Shown one piece after another: positions 941 through 24,616 of a stretch of DNA of 64,000 nucleotides. This DNA is from Candidatus Campbellbacteria bacterium. GTDB taxonomy: Bacteria > Patescibacteriota > Minisyncoccia > Phycocordibacterales > EsbW-18. Location of the stretch: NCBI GenBank assembly GCA_016699465.1, contig CP064977.1, forward strand, positions 204,993 to 268,992, written 5' to 3'. The notes under the pieces are model-generated. The model made no database searches, was not told the origin of the DNA, and saw nothing but the letters and a program-made list of their open reading frames with translations. Numbering within the stretch: position 1 is the first letter of the stretch; every line of letters starts with the position of its first letter. The position numbers and the translations under genes are program-made.

Positions 941-943
941 AGG

Positions 944-2032: not shown

Positions 2033-2035
2033 AGG

Positions 2036-3064
2036 TTAGGGGGTTGGTTTGATTGTTATATGTGGGTACTTCGCGCGCAAGATGTCTCGTTCGGTGGAGG
2101 TGAGTTTGCTGAGATAAAGGCTACCACCAATGGAGTGTGGGAGGATGAGACCTTCTACTGAGGTGAGACTGCCGAGGTAGAGATATCCACCGATTGTATG
2201 TGGGAGGATGAGACCTTCTACTGAGGTGAGGTTGTCGAGACTGAGATATCCACCAATTGCGCGTGGAAGGATGAGACCTTCTGCGGAGGTGAGTTTCTCG
2301 AGGTTGAGGCCGCCACCGATAGATTGTGGGAGGATGAGGTCTTTGGCGGAGGTGAGGTTCCAGAGGTTAAGACTGCCACCGATGGATTGTGGGAGGATGA
2401 GACCTTCTGCGGAGGTGAGGCGATTGAGGTAGAGGTCACCACCAATGGAGTGCGGAAGTGTGAGACCTTCTGCGGAGGTGAGGCGGTCGAGGTAGAGACC
2501 ACCACCGATTGTATGTGGGAGTGTGAGACCTTCTGCGGAGGTGAGATTGCTGAGGTCGAGATACCCACCAATTGAGTGTGGGAGTGTGAGACCTTCTGCG
2601 GAGGTGAGACCCCTGAGGTTGAGGCCGCCACCGATTGTATGTGGGAGTGTGAGACCTTCTGCGAAGGTGAGGTTCCTGAGGTCGAGGCCACACTTTTTGA
2701 GTACCGCAGTCATAGCAAGAGCTTTGTTGAGTTCGGGAGTTGGTCGTGTGGTGAAAAACCTAATCCACGATATGTGTTCGTGTTCAAAACCAAACCTAAC
2801 GTCCTTACCCATCAAACCACGTATACGTGCTCCTGCTTCTGCTTCAATACGAGGGAGGGTGTGTTCTTCAAAGGTAACCGGTTCGTATGCGTAGGTGAGG
2901 TACTCTTGTTGGAGGTGTGTGGTGTTTTGTTGTGCTGTGCGTACCGCTTCGTGTGCATCGGGTGTTCCTTCGTGCATGAGGGTGTCCGCTGCCTGTCGCA
3001 GAGTAGCAACCGCGTCTTTCCACGTGTGGTACTTCATCATGAGTTCTGGGCAGGAGGTGGGCAT
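2036..3064 (-). CDS. Repeat-family paralog, about 9 repeats.
   Basis: Same architecture as the other copies. Confidence 0.7.
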   Translation of the reverse strand: MPTSCPELMMKYHTWKDAVATLRQAADTLMHEGTPDAHEAVRTAQQNTTHLQQEYLTYAYEPVTFEEHTLPRIEAEAGARIRGLMGKDVRFGFEHEHISWIRFFTTRPTPELNKALAMTAVLKKCGLDLRNLTFAEGLTLPHTIGGGLNLRGLTSAEGLTLPHSIGGYLDLSNLTSAEGLTLPHTIGGGLYLDRLTSAEGLTLPHSIGGDLYLNRLTSAEGLILPQSIGGSLNLWNLTSAKDLILPQSIGGGLNLEKLTSAEGLILPRAIGGYLSLDNLTSVEGLILPHTIGGYLYLGSLTSVEGLILPHSIGGSLYLSKLTSTERDILRAKYPHITIKPTP

Positions 3065-3067
3065 GGG

Positions 3068-3970
3068 TTAGGGGGTGGGTTTGATTGTTATATGTGGGTA
3101 CTTGGCGCGTAGTGTGTCTCGTTCGGTTGAGGTGAGTTTGCTGAGATAAAGGCTACCACCAATGGAGTGTGGGAGCGTGAGGCCTTCTGCGGAGGTGAGG
3201 CGGTCGAGGTAGAGGTCACCACCGATTGTATGTGGGAGGATGAGACCTTCTGCGGAGGTGAGATTGTCGAGACTGAGATATCCACCAATTGTGCGTGGGA
3301 GCGTGAGACCTTCTGCGGAGGTGAGGCGGTCGAGGTAAAGATTGCCACCGATTGTGTGTGGGAGTGTGAGACCTTCTGCGGAGGTGAGGTTCTCGAGGTT
3401 GAGGCCGCCATCGATTGTATGTGGGAGGATGAGACCTTCTGCGGAGGTGAGATTGTCGAGGTTAAGACTGCCACCGATTGTATGTGGGAGGATGAGACCT
3501 TTTGTGGAGGTGAGGTTGCCGAGGTCGAGATACCCACCAATTGAGTGTGGGAGTGTGAGACCTTCTGCGGAGGTGAGGTTCCTGAGGTAGAGGCCATACT
3601 TTTTGAGTACCACCATCATGGCAAGAGCTTTGTTGAGTTCGGGAGTTGGTCGTGTGGTGGAAAACCTAATCCACGATATGTGTTCCTGTGCAAATTCAAA
3701 GTTGGCTTCCTCACCCATCAAACCACGTATACGTGTTCCTGCTTCTGCTTCAATACGAGGGAGGGTGTGTTCTTCAAAGGTAACCGGTTCGTATGCGTAG
3801 GTGAGGTACTCTTGTTGGAGGTGTGTGGTGTTTTGTTGTGCTGTGCGTACCGCTTCGTGTGCATCGGGTGTTCCTTCGTGCATGAGGGTGTCCGCTGCCT
3901 GTCGCAGAGTAGCAACCGCGTCTTTCCACGTGTGGTACTTCATCATGAGTTCTGGGCAGGAGGTGGGCAT
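3068..3970 (-). CDS. Repeat-family paralog, about 7 repeats.
   Basis: Same architecture as the other copies. Confidence 0.7.
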   Translation of the reverse strand: MPTSCPELMMKYHTWKDAVATLRQAADTLMHEGTPDAHEAVRTAQQNTTHLQQEYLTYAYEPVTFEEHTLPRIEAEAGTRIRGLMGEEANFEFAQEHISWIRFSTTRPTPELNKALAMMVVLKKYGLYLRNLTSAEGLTLPHSIGGYLDLGNLTSTKGLILPHTIGGSLNLDNLTSAEGLILPHTIDGGLNLENLTSAEGLTLPHTIGGNLYLDRLTSAEGLTLPRTIGGYLSLDNLTSAEGLILPHTIGGDLYLDRLTSAEGLTLPHSIGGSLYLSKLTSTERDTLRAKYPHITIKPTP

Positions 3971-3973
3971 GGG

Positions 3974-4939
3974 TTAGGGGGTGGGTTTGATTGTTATATG
4001 TGGGTACTTGGCGCGTAGTGTGTCTCGTTCGGTTGAGGTGAGTTTGCTGAGATAAAGGCTACCACCAATGGAGTGTGGGAGCGTGAGGCCTTCTGCGGAG
4101 GTGAGGCGGTCGAGGTAGAGGTCACCACCGATTGTATGTGGGAGGATGAGACCTTCTGCGGAGGTGAGACTTCCGAGGTCGAGGAAACCACCAATAGAGT
4201 GTGGAAGTGTCAGACCTTCTGCGGAGGTGAGGTTCTCGAGGTTGAGGCCGCCATCGATTGTATGTGGGAGGATGAGACCTTCTGCTGAGGTGAGATTGTC
4301 GAGACTGAGATATCCACCAATTGTGCGTGGGAGCGTGAGACCTTCTGCGGAGGTGAGGTTCTCGAGGTTGAGGCCGCCATCGATTGTATGTGGGAGGATG
4401 AGACCTTCTGCGGAGGTGAGATTGTCGAGGAAGAGGCCACCACCAATGGAGTGCGGAAGTGTGAGACCTTCTGCTGAGGTGAGGTCGCCGAGATTGAGAT
4501 ATCCGCCGATGGATTGTGGGAGGATGAGACCTTCTGCGGAGGTGAGACTCTCGAGGTCGAGGCCACACTTTTTGAGTACCACCATCATGGCAAGAGCTTT
4601 GTTGAGTTCGGGAGTTGGTTGTATGGTGGAAAACCCAATCCACGATATGTGTTCGTGTTCAAAACCAAACCTAACGTCCTTACCAATCAAACCACGTATA
4701 CGTGTTCCTGCTTCTGCTTCAATACGAGGGAGGGCGTGTTCTTCAAAGGTAACCGGTTCGTATGCGTAGGTGAGGTACTCTTGTTGGAGGTGTGTGATGT
4801 TTTGTTGTGCTGTGCGTACCGCTTCGTGTGCATCGGGTGTTCCTTCGCGCATGAGGGTGTCCGCTGCCTGTCGCAGAGTAGCAACCGCGTCTTTCCACGC
4901 GTGGTACTTCATCATGAGTTCTGGGCAGGAGGTGGGCAT
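3974..4939 (-). CDS. Repeat-family paralog, about 8 repeats.
   Basis: Same architecture as the other copies. Confidence 0.7.
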   Translation of the reverse strand: MPTSCPELMMKYHAWKDAVATLRQAADTLMREGTPDAHEAVRTAQQNITHLQQEYLTYAYEPVTFEEHALPRIEAEAGTRIRGLIGKDVRFGFEHEHISWIGFSTIQPTPELNKALAMMVVLKKCGLDLESLTSAEGLILPQSIGGYLNLGDLTSAEGLTLPHSIGGGLFLDNLTSAEGLILPHTIDGGLNLENLTSAEGLTLPRTIGGYLSLDNLTSAEGLILPHTIDGGLNLENLTSAEGLTLPHSIGGFLDLGSLTSAEGLILPHTIGGDLYLDRLTSAEGLTLPHSIGGSLYLSKLTSTERDTLRAKYPHITIKPTP

Positions 4940-4942
4940 AGG

Positions 4943-5719
4943 TTAGGGGGTGGGTTTGATTGTTATATGTGGGTACTTCGCGCGTAGTGTGTCTCGTTCT
5001 GCGGAGGTGAGGCTGCCGAGGTAGAGGTCACCACCGATTGTATGTGGGAGGATGAGACCTTCTGCTGAGGTGAGACTACTGAGGTCGAGGAAACCACCTA
5101 TGGAATGTGGGGGGATGAGACCTTCTGCGGAGGTGAGACGGTTGAGGTAGAAATTGCCACCGATTGTATGTGGGAGTGTGAGACCTTCTGCGGAGGTGAG
5201 GTTGTTGAGGTAGAGATTACCACCAATGGAGTGTGGAAGTGTGAGACCTTCTGCGGAGGTGAGGTTGTTGAGGTAGAGATTACCACCAATGGAGTGTGGA
5301 AGTGTGAGACCTTCTGCGGAGGTGAGGTTCCAGAGGTCGAGGCCACACTTTTTGAGTACCACCATCATGGCAAGAGCTTTGTTGAGTTCGGGAGTTGGTT
5401 GTGTAGCGGAAAACCCAACCCGCGATATGTGTTCGTGTTCAAAACCAAACCTAACGTCCTTACCCATCAAACCACGTATACGTGTTCCTGCTTCTGCTTC
5501 AATACGAAAGAGGGTGTGTTCTTCAAAGGTAACCGGTTCGTATGCGTAGGTGAGGTACTCTTGTTGGAGGTGTGTGGTGTTTTGTTGTGCTGTGCGTACC
5601 GCTTCGTGTGCATCGGGTGTACCTTCGTGCATGAGGGTGTCCGCTGCCTGTCGCAGAGTAGCAACCGCGTCTTTCCACGCGTGGTACTTCATCATGAGTT
5701 CTGGGCAGGAGGTGGGCAT
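4943..5719 (-). CDS. Repeat-family paralog, about 5 repeats; first gene of the array, next to a divergent promoter region.
   Basis: Same architecture. An intergenic region at 5720-5950 is shared with the divergent dnaE. Confidence 0.7.
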   Translation of the reverse strand: MPTSCPELMMKYHAWKDAVATLRQAADTLMHEGTPDAHEAVRTAQQNTTHLQQEYLTYAYEPVTFEEHTLFRIEAEAGTRIRGLMGKDVRFGFEHEHISRVGFSATQPTPELNKALAMMVVLKKCGLDLWNLTSAEGLTLPHSIGGNLYLNNLTSAEGLTLPHSIGGNLYLNNLTSAEGLTLPHTIGGNFYLNRLTSAEGLIPPHSIGGFLDLSSLTSAEGLILPHTIGGDLYLGSLTSAERDTLRAKYPHITIKPTP

Positions 5720-13118: not shown

Positions 13119-13182
13119 AAGAACGATTGTATCACCTCATAAAACAACTCCAAAAAATTGGAACATTCCTTACTGTACTCTT

Positions 13183-13215
13183 GACAATAAGTAACCAAGG
13201 TATATTCTTCAGAGT
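13183..13215 (+). promoter_or_regulatory. Sigma70-like promoter for pnuC-nadR-nrtR.
   Basis: TTGACA, 17-nt spacer, TATATT. Confidence 0.5.
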
Positions 13216-13243
13216 ATATTAGTTTGATTAATCCCTAAATCTT

Positions 13244-13909
13244 ATGGACGGATTCTTTAGTGTCAATAATATAGTTTTTACAGTTATCGGATATCCAATG
13301 AGCTATATTGAGTTCTTTGGTACCCTCCTCAATATATGGTGCGTATATCTTGTAGCAAAAAATAAAACACTCAACTGGCCTGTTGGTATTGTGGCAACTA
13401 TCCTTTTTGGATTTCTTTTCTTTCAAATTAATTTATATGCTGATTTTCTTGAACAAATCTATTTCCTCCTCACAGGTTTCTGGGGTTGGTGGGCGTGGAG
13501 TACGGGTAAAAAGAGCGCAAAAGAAGAGAAGCCCGTTCTCGCTCTTTCTTTCACATCTCGTCTGGGGTGGATACTTATCACGTTTGTCGGAACACTCATT
13601 TTAGGATATGTGGATGCCCATCTCAATGTATACTTTCCAAAAGTTTTTACAGAAGCAGCATCATTCCCTTACCTCGACTCGTTTACAACAATCATGAGTT
13701 TTGTAGCAACAATTTTACTTATACACAAAGAATTCGAGGCTTGGTATCTTTGGATTCTTGTGGATATTATTGGTATCTGGCTCTACTGGATAAAAGATGT
13801 TCACTTTGTATCTATTCTATATGTTATCTTCTTTATTCTTGCTGTAAACGGACTCACTACCTGGCGTAAACTTTACAAAAAACAACAATCGCTACAAAAA
13901 ACCATATGA
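13244..13909 (+). CDS. pnuC: Nicotinamide riboside transporter PnuC.
   Basis: Multi-TM protein with the PnuC-like N-terminus NIWCVYLVAKNKTLNWPVGIV and a W-rich loop. Confidence 0.75.
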   Translation: MDGFFSVNNIVFTVIGYPMSYIEFFGTLLNIWCVYLVAKNKTLNWPVGIVATILFGFLFFQINLYADFLEQIYFLLTGFWGWWAWSTGKKSAKEEKPVLALSFTSRLGWILITFVGTLILGYVDAHLNVYFPKVFTEAASFPYLDSFTTIMSFVATILLIHKEFEAWYLWILVDIIGIWLYWIKDVHFVSILYVIFFILAVNGLTTWRKLYKKQQSLQKTI

Positions 13910-14865
13910 TAAAAGGATTCATTATCGGAAAATTCTATCCGTTTCACCTTGGTCATATGTATTTGATTGATGTAGCGAGAGCAAATTGTGACCATTTGAT
14001 TGTTTGGGTCTGTGAAAAAGCAGAACAAACAGTGCTTGGCCATGTTCGTGCCAACTGGATCAAAGAATTATATCCCGATGTTGAGGTACGACTCATACCT
14101 GACACACTTGCAGATGATGATACACAAGGGTGGGCAACATATACACTTCGTGTGCTTGGCGAAGCACCGGATATTGTTTTCACTTCAGAAGACTATGGTG
14201 AGCCGTACGCAAAACTCATGGGCTCACGGCATATAATTGTTGATAAACACCGGGTACACATTCCTATCTCTGGAACGAAAGTTCGTAATGATGCCATCGC
14301 AAATTGGGCCTACCTAGCACCTCCTGTACGAGCCCACTATGCAAAACGTGTCGTTGTGCTAGGTGCGGAATCAACAGGAACCACAACACTTTCAAAAGCA
14401 CTTGCGGAACATTTTCAAACCACATGGGTACCTGAATATGGTCGGGAATACTGTTTACATCGTATAGAAGATCCTGATAAAAAATGGAGTACGGATGAAT
14501 TTATTCATATCGCCTCAGAGCACTCGCGTCGTGAAGATGAGCTGGCCAGAAACGCATATGGAGTTTTGATTAGCGATACTGATGCGTTTGCTACATCAAT
14601 ATGGCACAAACGTTATATGGGATTTTATTCGCCGGAAGTGCAAAAAATTGCTAATAAAAGGAGGGTGGATTTATACATACTTACCGGAGACGAAATTCCT
14701 TTTGTGCAAGATGGCACTCGAGATGGTGAAAACATTCGTCACGAAATGCACATTTGGTTCATTGAAGAAATGAAACGGACAGGAAGAACATACGTCTTAG
14801 TACAAGGTACCCCCGAAGAAAGACTACAGCAGTCTATCAGTGCTATAGAAAAGATTTTAGTTTAA
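13906..14865 (+). CDS. nadR: NadR-like bifunctional NMN adenylyltransferase / ribosylnicotinamide kinase (no HTH domain).
   Basis: N-terminal GKFYPFHLGH (H-x-G-H nucleotidyltransferase motif) and a C-terminal P-loop-like GAESTGTTT...EYGREY resembling the NadR RNK domain. Overlaps pnuC by 4 nt. Confidence 0.75.
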   Translation: MIKGFIIGKFYPFHLGHMYLIDVARANCDHLIVWVCEKAEQTVLGHVRANWIKELYPDVEVRLIPDTLADDDTQGWATYTLRVLGEAPDIVFTSEDYGEPYAKLMGSRHIIVDKHRVHIPISGTKVRNDAIANWAYLAPPVRAHYAKRVVVLGAESTGTTTLSKALAEHFQTTWVPEYGREYCLHRIEDPDKKWSTDEFIHIASEHSRREDELARNAYGVLISDTDAFATSIWHKRYMGFYSPEVQKIANKRRVDLYILTGDEIPFVQDGTRDGENIRHEMHIWFIEEMKRTGRTYVLVQGTPEERLQQSISAIEKILV

Positions 14866-14878
14866 CTATACAAAGTAT

Positions 14879-15562
14879 ATGACACCCAACTCACCACACG
14901 TTAAGTTTGCGATACTTGCATCTGACACAGCTATCTTTACCGTTCGAGATGGAGAACTACTTGTACGTCTCGTAAATGTTGATCGCCCTCCCCACTTTAA
15001 AAATATTCCCGGACTTCCTGGTGGTCTACTCACCCCAAAAGAAACAGCTGACGAAGCAGCACTTCGTCATATAGAGGAGAAGGCACACATCAAAGCAAGT
15101 AAACTATATATTGAACAACTATACACTTTTAGTGCTGTACACCGCGATCCACGAGGACGTGTCGTTGCTGTCGCACATACCGCACTGATCCCTTGGGAAA
15201 ATCTCTCAGCAACAGAGCAAATGGATACCAATGGCGCACAGTGGGTATCTGTCTCGAGTGCACACAAACTTGCATATGACCACGATGAAGTTCTCACTGT
15301 TGCTGTAAATCGTCTACGATCACGTTCCACGTACACAACCATCGTCAGTAAACTCATGCCAGCAGAATTCACACTTTCAGAATTAGAAAAAACATACGAA
15401 AGTATTCTTAAAACCCAATTTGATAAACGAAACTTTCGTAAAAAAATTCTGAAACTGAAAATCCTCAAAGAACTTCCACACAAACGAACCGGTGTTGCGT
15501 TTCGTCCTGCAGCACTCTACACATTCGCGTCTCCTAAAGTTAAAGAGATCGAAATTCTCTAA
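14879..15562 (+). CDS. nrtR: NrtR-like regulator (Nudix-like N-domain plus C-terminal wHTH).
   Basis: Degenerate Nudix box (GGLLTPKETADEAALRHIEEKAHI) and a C-terminal basic helical domain typical of NrtR. Sits in a NAD-salvage context. Confidence 0.6.
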   Translation: MTPNSPHVKFAILASDTAIFTVRDGELLVRLVNVDRPPHFKNIPGLPGGLLTPKETADEAALRHIEEKAHIKASKLYIEQLYTFSAVHRDPRGRVVAVAHTALIPWENLSATEQMDTNGAQWVSVSSAHKLAYDHDEVLTVAVNRLRSRSTYTTIVSKLMPAEFTLSELEKTYESILKTQFDKRNFRKKILKLKILKELPHKRTGVAFRPAALYTFASPKVKEIEIL

Positions 15563-15572
15563 ACGTGTCTTT

Positions 15573-15598
15573 AAAAAGCCCCTACCAAAGGGCTTTTT
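15573..15598 (+). terminator. Intrinsic terminator after nrtR.
   Basis: Hairpin aaaaagcccctaccaaagggcttttt. Confidence 0.8.
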
Positions 15599-15629
15599 AG
15601 TTATCCCCCATATTGATTTGCTAAGGTGC

Positions 15630-15720
15630 TTGACAGCCAGATACTTATTGTATAACATACACTTAGTACAGAGTTTTGAGGGCATATATTTTTTACCTTT
15701 ACTTAGTGTAATGTATACAA
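15630..15720 (+). promoter_or_regulatory. Promoter-like element for nadM with two inverted copies of a ~19-nt motif; candidate operator.
   Basis: TTGACA (15630-15635), 15-nt spacer, TATAAC. The motif gtataacatacacttagta lies at about 15650-15668, and a near-identical inverted copy (gtatacattacactaagta as its reverse complement) lies at about 15700-15718. Confidence 0.4.
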
Positions 15721-15770
15721 TATCTACCCTCTCAATTCGTAGCGTTCTTTGACAAGGAGAATACACAGAC

Positions 15771-16676
15771 ATGAGAAACACAACTGTTGGCGTCGTCGTC
15801 GCCAGGTTCCAGGTAGCGAAACTCCACAAGGGGCACACTTACCTCATCGACTACGTGAACTCGCGCTGCGACAACCTACTCATCATCCTCGGTACAGCTC
15901 GATCCTTCCCCACCAAGAAGAACCCCCTGTCCTTCGAGATGCGCCGGCTGATGATCGCGAACCGGTATCCAAACGCGATCATTGTCCCGCTTCGCGATAC
16001 CAAACTCGACTCCCGTTGGAGTACCGAGCTGGACCTCGCCATCTCCTCTGCCCTTCCCGGTGGTGTTGATGGCCACACCGTCACACTGTACGGTTCCCGT
16101 GATTCCTTCATCGACTTCTACACCGGTGTGCATGCAACACACCTTGTCCCTCCTCTAGGAACGAGCAACGGTACGAAGAACCGTGAGCGTCTCGCGAACA
16201 TCACCGACTCGGTGAAGTTTCGTGAAGGTGTCATCCACACGCAGATGAGCAGGCCGCCGGCCGTGTACCCCACGGTTGACATCGCCATCATCAAACGTGA
16301 GACCAATGAGGTCCTTCTCGGCGGTAAGAATGTGGACGGTGGCAAGCTTCGCTTCGTCGGCGGATTCGTTGACCCGAAGGATACCTCGTATGCAGTCGCT
16401 GCTAAGCGAGAAGTGTACGAAGAAACCACGGGCATCGAAATCGCCGATCTCAAGGAAGTTGGTTCCGCAAGAATCGACGACTGGAGGTATCGGGGCACCG
16501 GAGACAGCGTCATCACGACCTTCTTCACCGCTACGTACATCTTCGGTGCGCTTTGCGCCAGCGACGACCTCGATCGTCTTGTGTGGGTCCCTATCCCTCA
16601 CGTGATAGAGTATCTCGTTCCGGAGCACGAGCCTCTCGGGCTCATGCTTCTCAAGCACTTCAACCAGACCCTGTGA
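15771..16676 (+). CDS. nadM: Bifunctional NMN adenylyltransferase (NadM-type) / Nudix hydrolase.
   Basis: N-terminus GVVVARFQVAKLHKGH is a NadM-type nucleotidyltransferase signature. C-terminal Nudix box ...AAKREVYEETTG. About 60% GC. Confidence 0.75.
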   Translation: MRNTTVGVVVARFQVAKLHKGHTYLIDYVNSRCDNLLIILGTARSFPTKKNPLSFEMRRLMIANRYPNAIIVPLRDTKLDSRWSTELDLAISSALPGGVDGHTVTLYGSRDSFIDFYTGVHATHLVPPLGTSNGTKNRERLANITDSVKFREGVIHTQMSRPPAVYPTVDIAIIKRETNEVLLGGKNVDGGKLRFVGGFVDPKDTSYAVAAKREVYEETTGIEIADLKEVGSARIDDWRYRGTGDSVITTFFTATYIFGALCASDDLDRLVWVPIPHVIEYLVPEHEPLGLMLLKHFNQTL

Positions 16677-16692
16677 CAACAAGGAGAACGCC

Positions 16693-18096
16693 ATGAACGC
16701 ACACATCGAGCTCGGCAACACCGTCACTCGCACCGACAGCTACAAGGTCTCGCACCACCTGCAGTACCCTCCGAAGACCGAGATCCTCTTCTCCTTCTTC
16801 GAGAGCCGCGGGGGCGAGTTCCCCGGCGTGACCTTCTTCGGTCTCCAGTACATCCTCAAGCGGTATCTCGAGGGTGTCGTGGTCACCGAGCAAACGATCG
16901 CCAAGGCCCGTCGGCGCTTCGCCGCGCACTTCGGCTCCGACACGCTCTTCAACGAGAAGGGCTGGCGTAGGATCATCGATGTCCACGGCGGCAAGCTCCC
17001 CATCCGCATCAAGGCCGTTCCCGAAGGAACCACGGTTCCCACGAGCAACGTCCTGATGACCATCGAGAACACGGACCCCGAGCTGCCCTGGCTCACGAAC
17101 TACATCGAGACCATCCTCACCCAGGTGTGGTACCCCTCGACCGTCGCGACCCAGAGCCGTGCGATGCGCAAGCTCGTCCTCTCGTTCCTCGAGAAGACCG
17201 GTGACCCCTCACTCGTCGACTTCAAGGTCCACGACTTCGGGTACCGCGGTTCGACGTCCAACGAGTCCGCTGGCATCGGCGGCGCTGCCCATCTCGTCTC
17301 CTTCAAGGGGACGGACACGATGGTAGCGCTCGACGTCATCGAGGACTTCTACGGCGAGGAGTGCGCGGGGTTTTCCATCCCCGCTGCGGAGCACTCCACG
17401 ATCACGTCGTGGGGCAAGGAGCACGAGGTCGACGCCTACCGCAACATGCTGACCTCGTTCCCTTCCGGTCTCGTCGCCGTCGTCTCCGACAGCTACGACA
17501 TCTACAACGCCTGCAGCCAGCTGTGGGGCAAGGAGCTCAAGGAAGCGGTCATCAATCGTGACGGTGTCCTCGTCGTTCGCCCCGACAGCGGCTATCCGCC
17601 CGACGTCGTGGTGAAGGTGCTCGACATCCTCGGCAACGCCTTCGGCTACAGCATCAACAGCAAGGGCTACAAGGTGCTCAATCCGAAGGTACGCGTCATC
17701 CAGGGCGACGGCATCGACTTCTCGATGCTGCGCCGGGTGCTCGAGGCGATGGAGCAGCACGGATGGTCGGCCGACAACGTCGCATTCGGTTCCGGTGGCG
17801 GCCTGCTGCAGAAGGTGAATCGCGACACCCTGCGCTTCGCCTTCAAGGCTTGCGCTGTCCGTATCGACGGCCTCTGGCACGACGACATCATGAAGGATCC
17901 CGTGACCGATCACTCCAAGCGTTCGAAGGCTGGACGTCTCGTCCTCGTCAAGGACGACAAGACGTACAAGACGATGCGCGAGGAAGAGGCGATGCGGTCG
18001 GGGCTCCCCAACGAGCTCGTCACGGTCTTCGAGAACGGTGAGCTCCTCAAGGAGTACACCTTCGCCGAGATTCGTGAACGTGCCCTCATCGGCTGA
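16693..18096 (+). CDS. nadV: Nicotinamide phosphoribosyltransferase (NAMPT/NadV).
   Basis: N-terminal TDSYKVSHHLQYP is a NAMPT hallmark; 467 aa; about 62% GC. RBS aaggaga lies 7 nt upstream of the ATG. Confidence 0.85.
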   Translation: MNAHIELGNTVTRTDSYKVSHHLQYPPKTEILFSFFESRGGEFPGVTFFGLQYILKRYLEGVVVTEQTIAKARRRFAAHFGSDTLFNEKGWRRIIDVHGGKLPIRIKAVPEGTTVPTSNVLMTIENTDPELPWLTNYIETILTQVWYPSTVATQSRAMRKLVLSFLEKTGDPSLVDFKVHDFGYRGSTSNESAGIGGAAHLVSFKGTDTMVALDVIEDFYGEECAGFSIPAAEHSTITSWGKEHEVDAYRNMLTSFPSGLVAVVSDSYDIYNACSQLWGKELKEAVINRDGVLVVRPDSGYPPDVVVKVLDILGNAFGYSINSKGYKVLNPKVRVIQGDGIDFSMLRRVLEAMEQHGWSADNVAFGSGGGLLQKVNRDTLRFAFKACAVRIDGLWHDDIMKDPVTDHSKRSKAGRLVLVKDDKTYKTMREEEAMRSGLPNELVTVFENGELLKEYTFAEIRERALIG

Positions 18097-18141
18097 CGTC
18101 GTCTCGATCCTCTCATCTGTTTTTCTTCTTTCGTTCTTTTT

Positions 18142-18172
18142 ACCGCCATCACGTCGATGGCGGTTTCTTTTT
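18142..18172 (+). terminator. Intrinsic terminator after nadV.
   Basis: Hairpin accgccatcacgtcgatggcggt followed by ttcttttt. Confidence 0.75.
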
Positions 18173-18243
18173 ATATATAAAATCTATAACGAGGAAGGCC
18201 GCTGTCTTACAACAGCGGCCTAACCAAGAACAACTCCTTAGGG

Positions 18244-18846
18244 TTACAGCTCGGCGAGAGCATCCTCGATCTCGTGCATTAAGATGAGGTGCTTCTCAGC
18301 ATGTGGAAGGTAGTAGCGGCGCGTCTCGACAATCTTCCGCTGACGCTTCTCCGGTGTACACGCGTAGAGCGTCAGCAAGTTGTGAAGACGATCAGCCAAC
18401 TTGATCAGGAAGAACTCACGTGGTGCTGCATCGAAGCGGGTGTGGTACACGAGTTCACGTTCATCACGGTCCGCGTACTCCTCCTTGGATGGCTTCGTGA
18501 GGTACTGCACGTAGAGCGCGACCCGCTCTCCATACTTCACCCGAACGCGCTCAATGGTCCAGGACGGAATGTCCTCGACGATGTCATGGAGAAGCGCGGC
18601 GACGATGAGTTCGTAGTCCCTGATGCGCAGATAGTCGAGCAGGATGAGGGCAACGGCACGAATGTGCTCGAAGTACCTCGTCTTCTGGTCATCGCGATAC
18701 TTCCCACGAAACGCGTCCTTGGCGTCGTTGTACGCCTGCTCAATGAGCTTGTAGCGCCAATCAAGCGTCGGGTAGTAGAGGGCCACCCTTCTGAAAAAGC
18801 TCGCACGATTCTCTGCGGCGGTGAGGAACTGCATCTTTTTATTCAT
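18244..18846 (-). CDS. Small alarmone hydrolase (RelA/SpoT-type HD domain, Mesh1-like).
   Basis: HD motif AALLHDIVEDIP and ...YGERVALYVQYLTKP resemble the SpoT hydrolase domain. About 55% GC. RBS AAGGAGG precedes the ATG at 18846; the ORF track extends to 18879. Confidence 0.7.
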   Translation of the reverse strand: MNKKMQFLTAAENRASFFRRVALYYPTLDWRYKLIEQAYNDAKDAFRGKYRDDQKTRYFEHIRAVALILLDYLRIRDYELIVAALLHDIVEDIPSWTIERVRVKYGERVALYVQYLTKPSKEEYADRDERELVYHTRFDAAPREFFLIKLADRLHNLLTLYACTPEKRQRKIVETRRYYLPHAEKHLILMHEIEDALAEL

Positions 18847-18920
18847 CACCCCTCCTTGGGCTGTATGTGGTCTACCCAAATTATGTCACAAAAGAAATGG
18901 GCTGTCTATAAACTATCGTT

Positions 18921-19484
18921 TTATACTTTTCTGTATCGAAAACACGACACAGTGTGATCATTAACCATACCTGTTGCTTGCATATGCGCATAGATAGTTG
19001 TTGAGCCTAAAAATTTGAAACCACGTTTTTTTAAATCGAGTGCAAGTGCATCCGACTCTTTTGTTTTTGGTTGATACTCTTTGAGAGTTTTTATTTTGTG
19101 CGTCATTGGTTTGTGATTCACAAAAGACCAAATATATTTTGAAAATGTGCCAAACTCTTTTTGTACTTCAAGGAAACGCTGTGCGTTGTTTATTGCCGCT
19201 TCAATTTTTGCACGATTGCGGATTATACCTTCGTTTTTTAGAAGCTGCCGTACTTCTTTTTTTCCAAACTGTGCCACCTTTTTAGGATTGAACTGTGCAA
19301 ATGCTTTTCTGTAGTTTTCTCTCTTACGAAGCACGGTGAGCCACGAGAGTCCTGCTTGTGCACTTTCAAGCACTAAAAATTCAAATATCTTTTTGTCATC
19401 ATACACAGGAACACCCCACTCTTCATCGTGATATTTTTCATACAGCGCGTCGCCTTCTTTAACCCACGGACAACGTTTTATCAT
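18921..19484 (-). CDS. tag: DNA-3-methyladenine glycosylase I.
   Basis: EFLVLESAQAGLSWLTVLRKRENYRKAF matches the Tag family; 187 aa. Confidence 0.85.
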   Translation of the reverse strand: MIKRCPWVKEGDALYEKYHDEEWGVPVYDDKKIFEFLVLESAQAGLSWLTVLRKRENYRKAFAQFNPKKVAQFGKKEVRQLLKNEGIIRNRAKIEAAINNAQRFLEVQKEFGTFSKYIWSFVNHKPMTHKIKTLKEYQPKTKESDALALDLKKRGFKFLGSTTIYAHMQATGMVNDHTVSCFRYRKV

Positions 19485-19634
19485 GTTGTGACCCTAACGA
19501 TACAGAACTCAAAACCAATAGTCCAGTTTCTCCAAGAGCTCAGTAGTATAGCCTCTAAATTCTCTAGCCTCCAAAAAGATGTTTCTACACCAACAGCTCA
19601 ACTACAAGAGATACTCCCTTAATGAGTTTAAAAT

Positions 19635-20345
19635 CTATAAACCCACCTCTTTCATTACAACAGTGATGAGATCAAATATCTCTTGTACATTTGCATCTTC
19701 CATCTCTTTTTTTGAAGCAATATGAAAAAGAGAATGTGTTTTATCATTTGCGTCATCTTTAAAAGGAGTTGCCTTTTGTTTGATTCGTTCAATAGCACTT
19801 GAACCCGAAATAGAGAACTTCGTCCGTGACCTAAAAAAATTGTCTAACACAATACTAAAGTCCAAAGATCTCCTACTTGTGTTGTCTTCGTACAGTTTTT
19901 TATTCTTTACACTCGGAAATTTTTTCTTAAGGATTTGTACTATCAAATTTTCCATTACCTTTCGGCAAAGAATAAATGTCGCAGTACAACAATTTGCATG
20001 GTAAGTTCCATTTATTTCCTCAACATGTCGTAGGATAAAACTGTTTGTGGAAGGAAAGACCAAAATTGGAGGAAGTGGGCGCTTTCCACTCCTAACACTC
20101 GGACGCGCAGCCACTGGCACAACAGGTATGGTAGTAACTGTGGCTAATGATTTTTTATCATCATCGTCCAAAAAACGCATGAGGGATTTTCCTTTTTTTC
20201 TTGCCAAATACTGTGCTGCAGCTGCTGGTGTAAGTTGTGGGTGTGCATATTTGATTTCAGAAATACGGACAGCAAGAGAGCCTTTTGTGAGTCTAAGTGT
20301 CTTTATCAGGTGCTCACGAATTTCTTTACGCAGTATCTTTCCCAT
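19635..20345 (-). CDS. Hypothetical protein (236 aa), last gene of the HTH-quartet operon.
   Basis: ORF overlaps the upstream gene by 20 nt. No confident domain; the N-terminus is weakly similar to the HTH paralogs. Confidence 0.5.
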   Translation of the reverse strand: MGKILRKEIREHLIKTLRLTKGSLAVRISEIKYAHPQLTPAAAAQYLARKKGKSLMRFLDDDDKKSLATVTTIPVVPVAARPSVRSGKRPLPPILVFPSTNSFILRHVEEINGTYHANCCTATFILCRKVMENLIVQILKKKFPSVKNKKLYEDNTSRRSLDFSIVLDNFFRSRTKFSISGSSAIERIKQKATPFKDDANDKTHSLFHIASKKEMEDANVQEIFDLITVVMKEVGL

Positions 20346-20529
20346 ATTTTCTTATTGTCTTATTTACAATCTTTGCCACAGCATCAACGTCTGCTTGGTC
20401 AATCCCAAGAATTTCGCGCATCTCCTTGTTCCCCATACCTACTTGTCTGGCATGGAGGATAAATAAAGCCTGTACCCCTTTGTAGAGTTTTTCTTCTGTG
20501 GTAAGAGCCATTCGTTTCTTTTTAGTCAT
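20326..20529 (-). CDS. Small HTH protein, paralog 4 (sigma-70 region 4 / LuxR-like).
   Basis: 67 aa with HTH GMGNKEMREILGIDQADVDAVAKIV. Confidence 0.55.
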   Translation of the reverse strand: MTKKKRMALTTEEKLYKGVQALFILHARQVGMGNKEMREILGIDQADVDAVAKIVNKTIRKYGKDTA

Positions 20530-20719
20530 GAGTTTCTTTGGGAACTCTTATTCCCTTTACTAGACCATTAATTTTTCCAACTGACATGTTCAAGCCTGTT
20601 GCAATTTGTTTTTGTCCTGCACCACCCTTGTACATCTGGACAGCAATCAAGTGTTCTAGAAGGGATGCAATTCTTTGTAGTTTTGCATCTAATAGATGTG
20701 TTTGTTGTTTATTTTTCAT
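20522..20719 (-). CDS. Small HTH protein, paralog 3 (start chosen at MKNKQQ..).
   Basis: HTH GAGQKQIATGLNMSVGKINGLVKGI. Overlaps the neighbouring ORFs by a few nt. The track ORF 20522..20857 has an N-extension that overlaps paralog 2. Confidence 0.45.
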   Translation of the reverse strand: MKNKQQTHLLDAKLQRIASLLEHLIAVQMYKGGAGQKQIATGLNMSVGKINGLVKGIRVPKETHD

Positions 20720-20921
20720 GTTTCTTTTTGTTTTTTCTAGCATTGTGTAAAGCAACATTGACTGTGTTTGGTGTTGTATCAAGCAACTCAGCAATACGTT
20801 TTGGGGAAAGTCCCACATGACCCATTTCCTGTATAACCGCAGATTGTAAAGCTCCACGCTTCACCAGAACTGCCAATAACATCACCACCTCTTTTTGTGT
20901 TTGTAATATCTCTTTGTCCAT
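20709..20921 (-). CDS. Small HTH protein, paralog 2.
   Basis: 70 aa. GLSPKRIAELLDTTPNTVNVALHNARK is a classic sigma-r4/LuxR-type HTH. Confidence 0.6.
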   Translation of the reverse strand: MDKEILQTQKEVVMLLAVLVKRGALQSAVIQEMGHVGLSPKRIAELLDTTPNTVNVALHNARKNKKKHEK

Positions 20922-20923
20922 AG

Positions 20924-21139
20924 TTATTTTTTAGCCCTCTGTAGTGTCTTTTGAACTGCAGGAAGACCCTTACCCAATAATGTGGCTATATCCTTGCTTT
21001 CAAGCCCAATCTTGTCTAGTACGACCTCTAGTTTGACTTTCTTACTTTTTAAGAGTCCCTCGTCCCCCAAAAGTACCAGCACCGCCAAAATAGCAGAGAG
21101 CTTTTTTTCTATGTTTTCAAGGGTTTTTGAGTCATTCAT
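20924..21139 (-). CDS. Small HTH protein, paralog 1.
   Basis: 71 aa, GLESKDIATLLGKGLPAVQKTLQRAKK. Stop and start are 2 nt from paralog 2. Confidence 0.6.
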   Translation of the reverse strand: MNDSKTLENIEKKLSAILAVLVLLGDEGLLKSKKVKLEVVLDKIGLESKDIATLLGKGLPAVQKTLQRAKK

Positions 21140-21260
21140 ATACTTTTTATTATCTCTTATATGGACAGTATAACATAAATAAGCCTGAAATACAATGATT
21201 TTGCCTATTTTTGTCCATCATTACTAAGATTTATGTTTTACCAACGGTGAATAAAAACAT

Positions 21261-21293
21261 ATCGTGGCTTTGTTAAGCCACGCTATGTCTAAC
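21261..21293 (-). terminator. Intrinsic terminator (minus strand) after the 85-aa gene.
   Basis: cgtggctttgttaagccacg hairpin followed on the minus strand by atatgttttta. Confidence 0.5.
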
Positions 21294-21384
21294 TTTTGAA
21301 TATTATATATGAGCACCACAATATATCGGTGTACATATGTCAATTTGACACAGGGTTTCAGTATTACAGGGCAATGACCACCAA

Positions 21385-21642
21385 TTACTGTTTACTACAC
21401 ACTTCACTATTGAGTACAGAACTTAATAGTCTATCAGCAAACTTGTCTCCATTTGCTGAGGCGTGATATAGGGCAGCGACTGCTTCTGTACACTTACCTT
21501 CCTCATAGAAACTCATACCCCTATATATCCATGCTTCTGTATCGTTTTTGTTTCTTTGTTTATAAACAAATATAGCAACAACCAGCACTACAAGGGGTAA
21601 TAAAATAATGAGAGGTTTCTGAATTTTTTGAAAAAATATCAT
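21385..21642 (-). CDS. Small membrane-anchored protein with a Sel1/TPR-like fragment.
   Basis: N-terminal TM segment, then YRGMSFYEEGKCTEAVAALYHASANG. Confidence 0.45.
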   Translation of the reverse strand: MIFFQKIQKPLIILLPLVVLVVAIFVYKQRNKNDTEAWIYRGMSFYEEGKCTEAVAALYHASANGDKFADRLLSSVLNSEVCSKQ

Positions 21643-21752
21643 GAAATGGTTATTTTAGTATTTAGGTATATTAACCTATTTTTACAGCCTGATATTTTGA
21701 TTTGTAAAACAAGTTTTATGAACGTTTGATTTTTGAAAAAAAATCAGTTTTT

Positions 21753-22136
21753 CTAAAACCCAAGCTCCCTCACTGCCTCATGGTACTCTTCTGGGTTACC
21801 TGTAATCGTTTCTCCTGTGAGAGCGTACGACCATTCTGCAACATAAAATCCCGTATAGAGGTCTTTGATAAAGTAGTAAGAGCCTCCCGCTGAACTATAG
21901 CCACCTTTGTATAGGCAAGTTTTCATACTCTTGTTGTATATATACTGTGGTTCAAAATATGTAGTGACAAATGTTTGTTTTTCTAATTCTTTTTCGTGTT
22001 CTTCCTGTCCAGTCTCTCGACACTTGATTGCTTGGTTGGCATAAAACTCGGTATTCCTGCTGGAGGTGTAGAAAAATAAAGAAACAGCTCCAAGCACAAC
22101 TACTAGAGCCGTAAGAATAAAGTTGTTGGTCTTCAT
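21753..22136 (-). CDS. Hypothetical secreted or membrane protein (127 aa).
   Basis: N-terminal signal/TM segment (ILTALVVVLGAVSLFFY); no recognisable domain. Confidence 0.45.
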   Translation of the reverse strand: MKTNNFILTALVVVLGAVSLFFYTSSRNTEFYANQAIKCRETGQEEHEKELEKQTFVTTYFEPQYIYNKSMKTCLYKGGYSSAGGSYYFIKDLYTGFYVAEWSYALTGETITGNPEEYHEAVRELGF

Positions 22137-22668
22137 ATGTGTATCTGCCTAATTAATAAACACAAAACCCGCCACCAGGAGGTCTTGCGACCCTATAGGA
22201 GTTTCCCCCTATAACGTTAGGCACGCCCTGAATGACGGGTTTTTCATGCCTAACGTTTTTGTAACCATGCCCACAAGGGGTTTAGGTCTCCTAAATCTTA
22301 CCGCTTATCTCGTTTTAAAGAAAGCAGAGTTGCATTTTCAAATAAAAAGGTCTAACTTATTGCTAGGCCATGATCGATTGGCAATTAATAAGAAACACTT
22401 TTTGTAGAGGCAGAAACTTCGTTTCATACCTACATTAGCTGCGCCATTACACTTGCTGACTAAGGCATAAATTGAGAGTAACTAGGATTGTCTGGTTGAG
22501 TGTGAGGGGGTAGATGAAGGGCAATGCCCAACTGATGTCTAAAAGTGATTATGCAACCCGCAAGGGTTGTCTACTCGCTTTTGTGCATTGGTTGTTTTTT
22601 TATAACAACCTCTTGTATATGAAGCAACATAAATCATTGTGTTGTTTACTCCACAAGAACGAAGAAAG

Positions 22669-22797
22669 ATGAAAGACATCATTCTTCGTAGAAAAGGTAC
22701 TTCTAAAGAAGAGGCAGAGGTGATGGTTGATAGTTTGTTCGATCTTGCTATTGAATTAGACAAGATCGTGCGTAAACACCATCTGAGGAGAGTTTAA
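22669..22797 (+). CDS. Small ORF (42 aa) upstream of the recombinase; possible directionality or regulatory factor.
   Basis: ATG with stop, MKDIILRRKGTSKEEAEVMVDSLFDLAIELDKIVRKHHLRRV. Not in the ORF track (<60 aa). Weak RBS. Confidence 0.2.
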   Translation: MKDIILRRKGTSKEEAEVMVDSLFDLAIELDKIVRKHHLRRV

Positions 22798-22955
22798 ACG
22801 CTTTCTCCACAGAGAAAGCTGCTGAAATGGGTGGAAGGGTGTGTACTTGTTTCTTTAGTCTATAAAGCACATTTACACACCAACCTCCATTTCTTTATAA
22901 AAACAGAAATTTTGTTTTCTGTGTATTAGGAGCGAAAATTAAACATACATTCACT

Positions 22956-24503
22956 ATGAAAAATATTGCAAAATTAAGCAGACCAAAAACTACTGTCATC
23001 TACACCAGAGTTTCGTCCCAAGAGCAGGTAGCAGGATATAGTCTATCGGATCAAGAAAAGGCGTGCAGAGAGTATGCTCGAAAAAATGAATTGACTGTTA
23101 TTAAGGTTTTTCGTGAAGAGGGAGAATCAGCAAAAATAGCTGACCGTACTCAAATGAACCTGATGAGAGAATATTGCTTGCACAATACAGGCAAAGTTGG
23201 CTTCATTGTTGTCTATAAAGCTGACCGCTTTTCTCGAAACAGTATGGATCACGCACTGCTTCGAAAGTTCTTCAAGGACTGTGGTGTGGAGCTGAGGTCT
23301 GCTACTGAACCTATTGAAGACACTCCTTATGGAAAATTCTTTGAGTTAATGCTCTCAGGAATTGCAAACTTAGATAACGACATCCGAACTGAAAGAACTA
23401 TTCTTGGAATGCGCTCAAAAGCTGAAGATGGATATTGGCCGTCTGGTGCTCCGTGGGGTTATCGAAATGTTACTAATGTTCTTGGAAAGCGTGTTATTGA
23501 ACCTGACCCAATAAAAGCTCCTGTAGTAAAGTTTCTCTTCGAAGAGTTCTCTAGAGGAACAGTTGGTTTTTCTGAGTTAGCAAAAAAAGTAAATAAGATG
23601 TGGGGCGTGAAGAGTAAGCATGGACAAGCAATGAGTAAACAACTTGTTCATAAAATCCTTTGCAATCCAATACATTATGGTTGGGTAGAGGTTTCAAAAC
23701 TTGGAATCTCTGTTCAAGGGAAACATGAGCCAATCATTTCTGCTGAGTTATTCAATGAGGTTCAATTACTTATGAGAAAAGATAGAGGTCATAAACAACC
23801 AAGAAACAGAAACAATCCAGAGTTTCCTCTTAGAGGTGTGAAGTGTGGACATTGTGGAGGTAATCTATCCGGAGGGTTTGTTTCTGGGAGAAATAAAAAA
23901 TATGCCTATTACAGTTGTATGAATCCTTCTTGCTCCAAAGCAAAATCGATACGTAGAGAGAGTTTGGAAAATGACTTCACTGAATTTCTTGAGAAATATA
24001 CTCCAGATCCTATTCTCATGGAGGCTTTGGGAGAAGCATTAAAGATCGTGTCCAAAAAGCAATCTGCTGAAAATCTGATCCAGACCAGTAAGGTAGAGAG
24101 AGTATGTGCCAAGTTGGAGATTGAGATGGAAGAACTCTTACAACTTCGTGTGAGTGGAATTATTGATGATAAAACATATCTTCATGAGAGTAGTAAGAGA
24201 AAAGAAAAAATTAGAAATTTACAAGCGGAGGGAGTCATTCTTGCACGTTCAAATCCAACCCCTGATTCATCAGCCCAATTTGGGCTGAGGTTAATTAGCG
24301 AATTTCCTCTCACATGGAAAATGCTAGAGCCTGGAGAACTGAAAGCACTACGTAGAGTGCTGTTTCCCCAAAATCTCCAGTACATGTATCCTGGATTTAA
24401 AACCGCTGAATTATCCCCTATCTACAAGGTAAAAGCAGCTTCTGGTACAGATGAAAATCGTTTTGTGACCTCATCGGGATTTGAACCCGAGTTTTCGCCT
24501 TGA
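22956..24503 (+). CDS. Large serine recombinase (integrase).
   Basis: N-terminal resolvase catalytic motif YTRVSSQEQ, a recombinase domain, and zinc-ribbon cysteines (CGHCGG...C..C); 515 aa. The last 38 nt overlap tRNA-Glu on the opposite strand. Confidence 0.85.
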   Translation: MKNIAKLSRPKTTVIYTRVSSQEQVAGYSLSDQEKACREYARKNELTVIKVFREEGESAKIADRTQMNLMREYCLHNTGKVGFIVVYKADRFSRNSMDHALLRKFFKDCGVELRSATEPIEDTPYGKFFELMLSGIANLDNDIRTERTILGMRSKAEDGYWPSGAPWGYRNVTNVLGKRVIEPDPIKAPVVKFLFEEFSRGTVGFSELAKKVNKMWGVKSKHGQAMSKQLVHKILCNPIHYGWVEVSKLGISVQGKHEPIISAELFNEVQLLMRKDRGHKQPRNRNNPEFPLRGVKCGHCGGNLSGGFVSGRNKKYAYYSCMNPSCSKAKSIRRESLENDFTEFLEKYTPDPILMEALGEALKIVSKKQSAENLIQTSKVERVCAKLEIEMEELLQLRVSGIIDDKTYLHESSKRKEKIRNLQAEGVILARSNPTPDSSAQFGLRLISEFPLTWKMLEPGELKALRRVLFPQNLQYMYPGFKTAELSPIYKVKAASGTDENRFVTSSGFEPEFSP

Positions 24504-24540
24504 GAAGGCGACGTCCTGGACCAGGCTAGACGATGAGGCC
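24466..24540 (-). tRNA. tRNA-Glu (anticodon CUC).
   Basis: Reverse complement reads GGCCTCATCGTCTAGCCTGGTCCAGGACGTCGCCTTCTCAAGGCGAAAACTCGGGTTCAAATCCCGATGAGGTCA. 7-bp acceptor stem, D-arm like canonical tRNA-Glu, anticodon loop TTCTCAA, T-arm GGTTCAAATCC. Confidence 0.85.
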
Positions 24541-24616
24541 AAATACGGAGACACACAAACTAAGATGAAACCGCCCAGACCAGAATACAAGAAAAAAGAG
24601 CTTGAATCAAATGATT

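Follow-up and report, generated by a model that had tools for sequence, protein, structure and literature searches.

A large serine recombinase gene that runs into the 3' half of a neighbouring tRNA-Glu gene raises the question of how the two came to be joined: whether the recombinase belongs to an element that has integrated there, where that element ends, and what has become of the tRNA and of the recombinase gene itself. We consider this question for a stretch of 64,000 nucleotides from Candidatus Campbellbacteria bacterium (contig CP064977.1, positions 204,993 to 268,992), called the window in the following, with coordinates counted from its first letter. An earlier note had read the locus as an integrated element that abuts the tRNA 3' end and is driven by the serine recombinase, with a start at 19500. 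That reading agrees with what we find, since the junction of the free form (attP, where att stands for attachment site) and an empty site both exist, and the proposed start lies only 6–14 nt from the true left end. We consider it very probable that the locus is a serine-integrase element at the 3' end of tRNA-Glu, with the boundaries given below and a split open reading frame (ORF) of the recombinase gene, called int here.

The window has a single tRNA, a tRNA-Glu(CTC) that ARAGORN places at 24465–24540 on the minus strand and that matches Rfam at 24466–24540 with 59 bits. The ORF of int (22956–24503, plus strand) codes for 515 amino acids in the integrated isoform present here. It reads 38–39 nt into the tRNA 3' half, an overlap that the earlier note had already recognized, and its last ca 10–13 codons are antisense tRNA. 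The TGA stop codon (24501–24503) lies in the anticodon loop, where it is the complement of tRNA nucleotides 37–35.

The classification of int as a large serine recombinase is borne out by matches of the 515-residue ORF to the Resolvase (PF00239, 2.4e-28), Recombinase (PF07508, 6.6e-12) and Zn_ribbon_recom (PF13408, 9.5e-8) domains. In an alignment of 49 sequences, the catalytic-domain residues Y16, R18, S20, Q24, R64, R91 and R94 are invariant, and all of them are present in the window protein; in the zinc ribbon, C300 and C326 are invariant and C297 is nearly so. Among proteins of solved structure, the TP901-1 and A118 integrases are the nearest relatives, and the zinc-ribbon region matches the C-terminal domain of the latter (4kis). 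A coiled coil is seen in the AlphaFold2 model of P0004, a homologue with 59% identity, rather than in a model of the window protein: its helices cover residues 362–409 and 415–439, with a predicted local distance difference test score (pLDDT) above 90. By its domain content and the logic of its att sites, int is a large serine integrase, and recombination activity is predicted for it.

The 26-nt tRNA 3' segment, for which the earlier note had proposed a search as a direct repeat, has no second copy in the window, even when up to three mismatches are allowed. The contig L001, which encodes P0004, shows another kind of boundary. Here, window positions 24277–24470 are joined directly to window positions 19480–19639, which is an attP-type junction. 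The left and right junctions of the integrated element, attL and attR, have only the 8-bp core TTGTGACC in common, at 19486–19493 and 24463–24470, respectively. This core is flanked by mismatches, includes the centre of the attP inverted repeat, and gives an element of 4,977 bp from core to core. The reconstructed attP of ca 50 bp (…GATGAAAATCGTTTTGTGACCCTAACGATACAGAACTC…) lies within the 3' end of the int ORF and consists of the arm ATCGTT, the 10-nt spacer TTGTGACCCT and the arm AACGAT; the arms thus form a short, imperfect inverted repeat, and there is no long direct repeat. The P arm (…GATGAAAATCGTT) is found immediately left of the attR core, within the int coding sequence. The P' arm (CTAACGATACAGAACTCAAAACC, 19494–19516, plus strand) occurs once in the window and is kept in L001 and in the sister elements L004–L007, whatever the target tRNA; it matches 21 metagenome stretches, of which 17 are real junctions.

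In the mechanism that we propose, the element's own large serine recombinase would have inserted the element (19486–24470) right at the 3' terminus of the gene for tRNA-Glu(CUC). The GA at the centre of the attP spacer would pair with tRNA nucleotides 72–71, making GA (19490–19491 in attL) the probable crossover dinucleotide, and the tRNA would be regenerated exactly, with no fragment displaced. A direct tRNA repeat was therefore the wrong expectation, because a crossover at nucleotides 71–72 duplicates no tRNA fragment. Recombination needs only a short shared core, so that no long repeat arises and the tRNA is left whole. The target site, attB (AACGTTTTATCATGTTGTGACCTCATCGGGATTTGAACC), consists of the acceptor/T-arm half of the tRNA, whose 3' half is the B' arm in the intact gene at 24466–24540, and of a few nucleotides downstream, which in this lineage are the start of the tag gene.

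An empty tRNA-Glu site, which the earlier note had suggested looking for among relatives, was found exactly in L113, one of four related contigs (L111–L114) obtained through MurF homologues, which also mark the host as Campbellbacteria-like. There, the sequence reads ...GGTCAC aaa ATGAAAAAACGTTGTCCGTGG, and tag begins 3 nt past tRNA-Glu. The window attB rebuilt from the left side of attL and the right side of attR, GGTCAC aac ATGATAAAACGTTGTCCGTGG, has the same layout. In L111, the flanks are 92–97% identical to those of the window, and tag and tRNA-Glu are 155 nt apart with no element between them. L112 has no copy of the window element and carries a different insert of 2.3 kb with a displaced tRNA-Glu 3' fragment, and in L114 the tRNA is inverted and the window element is absent. 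The element is thus missing from all four relatives, which means that its presence varies. The earlier note would have taken the lack of a repeat together with an unchanged gene order in all relatives as the sign of a fixed remnant; the repeat is indeed lacking, but the gene order is not the same.

It can be added here that two Logan contigs covering the window overlap by exactly 30 nt (24474–24503), in the T-arm/anticodon stem, and that this overlap ends at anticodon nucleotide 34. We considered this break inside the tRNA as a possible empty-site variant and rejected it, as the overlap fits an assembly-graph branch from a second tRNA-Glu species in the sample that shares the T-arm.

The window element is one of five for which both ends could be delimited independently, the tail peptide described below having been used to locate attL in the four sisters. 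The shared cores are 6–8 bp long, and the attP palindrome centre lies in the block of identity in all five. In addition to the window element (tRNA-Glu, TTGTGACC, spacer centre GA), the elements in L004 (GTGACCC) and L005 (GTGACCT) also target tRNA-Glu and also have GA at the spacer centre. The element in L006 targets tRNA-Arg, with the core GTCCCC and the centre CC, and that in L007 targets tRNA-His, with the core GGGTGCCT and the centre GT.

One could ask whether ORF and tRNA overlap by mere coincidence, with an unrelated recombinase that happens to lie beside a tRNA. A scan of GTDB with one genome per species gave 273 int relatives, and we surveyed the best 80 of these loci, together with five loci on viral contigs and the window, for overlaps with tRNAs. 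In 57 of them the int ORF ends inside a minus-strand tRNA, which is tRNA-Glu in 53 cases (31 UUC and 22 CUC), tRNA-Arg in three and tRNA-His in one, while at two additional loci int reads through tRNA-Asn or tRNA-Leu. At the Glu loci, the ORF enters the tRNA by 34–42 nt and the TGA stop is formed by anticodon nucleotides 35–36 (UC) and A37. With the same geometry in 53 of 57 loci, and with an attP-form junction and an empty site at hand, the probability of a coincidence is close to nil.

The same habit is visible in the proteins. Nearly all of the 120 closest homologues are 505–525 residues long, and about 100 of them end in ...LV(T/A)xxG(I/F)EPxF, which is the conserved tRNA T-arm GGTTCGAATCC read antisense. 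An exhaustive search gave 1,727 clusters (50% identity) that match int at E<=1e-30, and antisense-tRNA tails are present in at least 60 of 123 full-length sequences taken from the best 150 cluster matches. In the species genomes of GTDB, the relatives occur in Patescibacteria, Acidobacteriota, Verrucomicrobiota, Myxococcota, Planctomycetota, Gammaproteobacteria, Acidimicrobiia and others. The integrase hence belongs to a large, apparently undescribed family that is specialised on the tRNA-Glu end across many phyla, and what the earlier note had taken for a rare pairing of a serine integrase with a tRNA is the defining habit of this family. In the literature, we found nothing on a large serine integrase family specific for tRNA-Glu, nor on the LOOT RNA discussed below in such a context, although this absence is not proof.

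In L011, L029 and L039, the tRNA sequence in which the int ORF ends is no more than a 3' fragment, and in L011 and L039 an intact tRNA follows 0.4–7.6 kb further on. Other element types seem to share the same tRNA and to stack on these islets (L011, L029, L039 and also L112).

We now turn to the effect of the insertion on int. P0004 has 557 residues, the last of which, LTMQNSKPIIQFLQSLSAVAGKFASLQNRDSVPMALLQETLP, do not derive from a tRNA. This end matches a reading frame without a start codon at 19494–19622 of the window (plus strand; 42 codons and a stop, LTIQNSKPIVQFLQELSSIASKFSSLQKDVSTPTAQLQEILP), which in L001 is colinear with the int 3' end. Because attP lies within the int ORF, integration swaps the C-terminus: the free form in L001 has 557 residues, against 515 in the integrated form of the window. 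For the window element, the circular form would encode int residues 1–505 followed by the conserved helical tail of 42 residues, 547 in all. Upon integration, this tail would be left behind at attL and replaced by ca 10 tRNA-derived residues, which yields the 515-residue isoform. Only in the circular attP form does the detached tail exon continue the int reading frame.

The tail is conserved as a protein sequence. Its reading frame is open only in the int register, and 13 of 18 distinct copies from genomes and metagenomes have exactly 42 codons. For codons 10–41, which lie beyond the P' arm, the median pairwise ratio of nonsynonymous to synonymous polymorphism (pN/pS) is 0.48, compared to 0.94 and 1.29 in the other frames. 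The detached tail is thus under purifying selection, although it cannot be translated with int in the integrated state. Homologues of the attP type from other phyla have a comparable amphipathic end, for example ...WNQLVQEIQAFAAIVG, and similar helix tails of the form 'WNQ..E..F'. When the last 91 residues of P0004 were used as a protein query for more free-form integrases, no match was obtained, with a word index that is limited for short queries.

Two side observations concern these tails. Directly after the tail stop, a conserved AGTT(T/A)AAA(A/T)C(C/T)TAT is found (window 19623–19640), and at the same place in L001 and L004–L006; it resembles the stretch AACTCAAAACC of the P' arm and may be a further, putative protein-binding site. 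In Acidobacteriota of the Multivoradales (L042, L045, L048, L063, L073, L081 and L082), complete attP-type 'WNQ' helix tails occur on chromosomal contigs of up to 1.5 Mb. These int genes have no adjoining tRNA, and at most an unrelated one several kb away.

The element also carries a structured RNA. The hairpins at 22215–22265, described as terminator-like in the earlier note, are in fact stems of a LOOT RNA (Rfam RF03000; 22180–22288, minus strand), which is divergent from int and scores 68.9 bits against a gathering threshold of 46.4. Among 19 copies, 18 of 20 predicted pairs show compensatory changes. Using Rfam or a model built in this analysis, we located LOOT in all 23 loci of the clade (the window, L001, L004–L020, L022, L039, L040 and L050), a set that comprises every locus of the integrase sub-clade at an identity of ca 36% or more. 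In all of them LOOT is divergent from int and lies 0.65–2 kb upstream of it, while it is absent from the loci of other phyla and the more distant Patescibacteria loci that were examined. To our knowledge, LOOT has been known only from metagenomes, with no assigned context.

At 22 of the 23 loci, an ATG-initiated ORF of variable identity starts 20–53 nt downstream of LOOT. In the window, the RNA ends in a short hairpin and a U-rich tract, 33–44 nt upstream of the ATG of a 127-residue ORF, and several of the loci have -10-like promoter elements just upstream of LOOT and a short hairpin with a U-tract at its 3' end. Most likely, LOOT serves the cargo operon as a 5' leader or attenuator, a role that would fit this layout better than that of a free-standing small RNA. 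Rfam lists the family as a small RNA; the window copy passes the family threshold and has covarying stems, but differs in being bound to one integrase clade, at a fixed spot before the cargo. We also considered LOOT as a guide or bridge RNA for the choice of target. This was rejected, as its longest complementarity to attP or attB is 6–8 nt in the five elements, which is the same as in a shuffled null (mean 6.5–6.8 nt, maximum 9–12 nt). Second LOOT copies are present outside the delimited elements in L005 (1040–1170), L094 (3165–3315, beside a 28%-identical int-like match at 3500–4552) and L022 (920–1056), and may represent neighbouring or stacked elements.

The remaining content of the element is small. 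The cargo would be transcribed leftward from a promoter preceding LOOT. The first genes downstream of LOOT encode small proteins of 85 and 127 residues, each with a membrane anchor at its N-terminus (21385–22136, minus strand). They are followed by four overlapping small ORFs of 67, 65, 70 and 71 residues (20326–21139, minus strand), putative regulators, and by an ORF of 236 residues with no recognisable family (19635–20345, minus strand). The earlier note had described a five-gene operon of small regulators; the five overlapping genes are there, but only two of the four small ones match a helix-turn-helix, and weakly so, that of sigma-70 region 4. Apart from these, the window cargo has no Pfam, PHROG, PADLOC or NCBIfam match. 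Likewise, the description of the region as AT-rich and gene-sparse holds for the composition (35–40% GC over 19–24 kb, compared to ca 43% for most of the window) but not for the gene density, as small ORFs are packed around two structured noncoding stretches.

The four sister elements, of 6.0, 6.2, 7.9 and 9.8 kb, have the same backbone: the tail exon with the P' arm comes first and is followed by variable cargo read leftward, by LOOT, by structured leaders and finally by int. Cargo in this group is of the defence type, namely a KAP NTPase (L004), OLD-like AAA_15/AAA_21 ATPases (L005, L001), two DNA methyltransferases and a nuclease (L007) and an Mrr endonuclease (L006). Neither in the window element nor in the sisters did we see replication, transfer or virion genes.

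This content bears on whether the element, instead of being a plain integrative islet, could be a prophage or a phage satellite. Temperate phages typically have serine integrases, the top PHROG match is a phage integrase family, and the small size is satellite-like. However, no capsid, terminase, portal, primase or packaging gene is present in the window element or its four sisters, and in the window element the PHROG matches are limited to the integrase and a weak sigma-factor helix-turn-helix. Furthermore, the 2.9 million viral contigs of IMG/VR contain only five distant relatives and no match to the P' arm. We therefore regard a phage origin as very improbable.

Between LOOT and int there are two long hairpins. 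The first (22535–22588, plus strand; z = -5.0) has a GCAA apex, CAACCCGCAAGGGTTG, at 22554–22569, and not at about 22585 where the earlier note had put it; it lies upstream of a small ORF and int and is kept with compensatory changes in L001 and L005. The second (22823–22893, plus strand; GGGTGTGTA...TACACACC; z = -5.2) is a conserved hairpin in the 5' leader of int. Compensatory changes in both are seen among L001, L004 and L005, and the two are probably regulatory structures for int expression.

The small ORF between them (52 residues; 22639–22797, plus strand) is, by a weak inference, a candidate regulator or directionality factor. It is conserved only in the four closest elements, and as a recombination directionality factor for the whole family it was rejected, being detectable in only 4 of the 23 loci.

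A number of observations weigh against the proposed mechanism of a mobile, tail-swapping element. No circular contig was found among the 21 metagenome hits, and L001 shows no terminal overlap; it is a linear fragment of 5.15 kb, whose junction could be internal to a tandem array. It is also the one attP-type junction with an intact int in the LOOT clade, as the other, in L100, has only an int remnant. No directionality factor was identified, and the 52-residue ORF has the narrow distribution given above. The complete attP-type tails on Mb-scale chromosomal contigs (L042, L048 and L063) are not explained by the simple model. As to the tail itself, the model of P0004 is confident for the body (mean pLDDT 86.5), but the tail, with a helix at 521–537, stays below a pLDDT of 55 and is modelled away from the body, undocked, and the P' arm, with which the first ca 9 tail codons coincide, can account for their conservation as a DNA site. 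Finally, several metagenome contigs have decayed copies without int next to tRNA-Glu, which means that some copies are fixed relics.

The points concerning the tail also speak for a different interpretation of the swap, in which element and chemistry are the same but the C-terminal exchange is a by-product of compactness without regulatory meaning, and the two isoforms behave alike. The elements are very small (5–10 kb) and have overlapping genes, and the tRNA-encoded tail is set by the tRNA sequence, not chosen. On the other hand, the part of the tail beyond the att site keeps its exact length in most copies and has a pN/pS well below that of the other frames, which is ca 1, the attP-type homologues of other phyla terminate in a similar amphipathic helix, and an analogous change in phage Mx8 alters the behaviour of the integrase (PMC6070905). 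We give the by-product interpretation roughly one chance in three.

That the 547- and 515-residue isoforms differ functionally has, by the same analogy, somewhat less than an even chance. The full-length integrase would then serve integration, and the truncated form would be less active or altered, as in the IntP and IntX forms of Mx8. Such a state-dependent change of activity is the most likely meaning of the tail swap, about evenly balanced against a by-product. A built-in switch, in which only the circular form is competent for integration, the tRNA-tailed isoform differs in directionality or stability, and LOOT is a dedicated regulator of cargo or element, is a bolder proposal that we hold to be rather unlikely.

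The relics raise the related question of whether the window copy is an immobile, fixed remnant, inherited or imported with its flanks through homologous recombination. Remnants of 0.3–3 kb that lack int and have the P' arm and tail beside tRNA-Glu are common (L091, L092/L099, L096 and L105, all metagenome contigs), and decay to a relic is thus one fate of these elements. No excised form was found for the window copy, and its tag gene is only 83% identical to that of L111, compared to 92–97% for the surrounding flanks, which suggests the import of a block. However, the window copy has kept int and its tail exon, LOOT, the leader hairpins and the two att arms in intact form, and presence varies among close relatives. 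We consider a fixed remnant improbable, and infer that the window element still moves. As a side observation on decay, the attP-type junction of L100 is internal and comes with an int fragment, a pattern suggestive of insertions as tandems or dimers that later decayed.

It is instructive to compare the element with known systems. By the textbook account, serine integrases do not use tRNAs as targets, and their control lies with separate directionality factors. With the characterised large serine integrases (phiC31, Bxb1, A118/LI, TP901-1, SPbeta SprA, CcrB and XisF), int shares the domain order, the zinc ribbon with a long coiled coil, the short att sites with a tiny shared core, and the position at the element edge beside attP. 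It differs from them in its target, the tRNA-Glu 3' terminus instead of protein-coding genes or intergenic sites, and in that attP lies within the int ORF, with an extra conserved C-terminal region and a swappable tail. The target of the phiRSM recombinase is tRNA-Ser. This enzyme, known from a title cited in PMC7192596 as a resolvase-like serine recombinase that uses a tRNA, likewise acts at a tRNA 3' end when it integrates; it is, however, a small resolvase-type protein from a filamentous phage and lacks the recombinase, zinc-ribbon and coiled-coil domains. A large survey of large serine recombinases reports protein-coding targets only and never mentions tRNA (PMC10083194), while a preprint on tycheposons states, without detail, that large serine recombinases occur in 27 of 937 tycheposon-like elements.

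Like tRNA islands of the Islander class and tycheposons, the element is a small carrier of cargo beside the 3' side of a tRNA, with the integrase gene next to the tRNA and with a presence that varies among relatives. Islander-class islands, as outlined in PMC4383910, have tyrosine integrases, a crossover inside the tRNA and a displaced tRNA fragment as direct repeat. Here, in contrast, the sole recombinase is of the serine type, the repeat is 8 bp and no fragment is displaced.

The attB sites of phage Mx8 lie in tRNA-Asp genes. The Mx8 integrase is the closest analogue, in that attP is within its coding sequence and integration makes a new 3' end of the gene, with an altered enzyme that remains active in a modified way (PMC6070905); the C-terminus thus depends on whether the DNA is free or integrated, as it does here. 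The Mx8 enzyme is a tyrosine recombinase of a 49-kb phage, whereas int is a serine recombinase of a 5-kb islet whose replacement tail is antisense tRNA with an anticodon-derived stop. In archaeal integrases of the SSV1 type, attP is also within the gene, and integration into a tRNA gene partitions it, so that the intact gene exists only in the circular form. These belong to the tyrosine family and to archaeal viruses and plasmids, and they are split mid-gene and inactivated, not merely re-tailed.

Two neighbouring features of the window deserve mention. A segment of 5.8 kb at 13138–18923, with a GC content of up to 63%, is missing from the close relative L111. It contains an NAD-salvage cluster (a PnuC transporter, a NadR-like kinase/adenylyltransferase, an NrtR regulator, Nudix, NAMPT and an HD protein) and seems to be another acquisition, unrelated to the element and located across tag from it. 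At 38–5719 on the minus strand, there are six tandem paralogous ORFs of 258–362 residues with a period of ca 1,032 bp, a GC content of 52–54% and a very strong GC skew (+0.3), which have only weak HNH_5 and DUF7131 matches.

If the proposed switch is true, a control through the C-terminus would leave this integrase family largely independent of a separate directionality factor, and both the integration-state switch and the dedicated regulation by LOOT would be new for serine integrases. In any case, the family that targets tRNA-Glu offers a natural system for testing C-terminal control of directionality, and LOOT, an orphan RNA until now, gains a genomic home and a testable role. As the attB half-site is the near-universal acceptor/T-arm of tRNA-Glu, int is a possible integration tool of broad host range that needs no landing pad, and it would suit the Patescibacteria, which have no genetic tools. 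For these bacteria, the finding means that islets of 5–10 kb shuttle defence-type cargo in their ultrasmall genomes.

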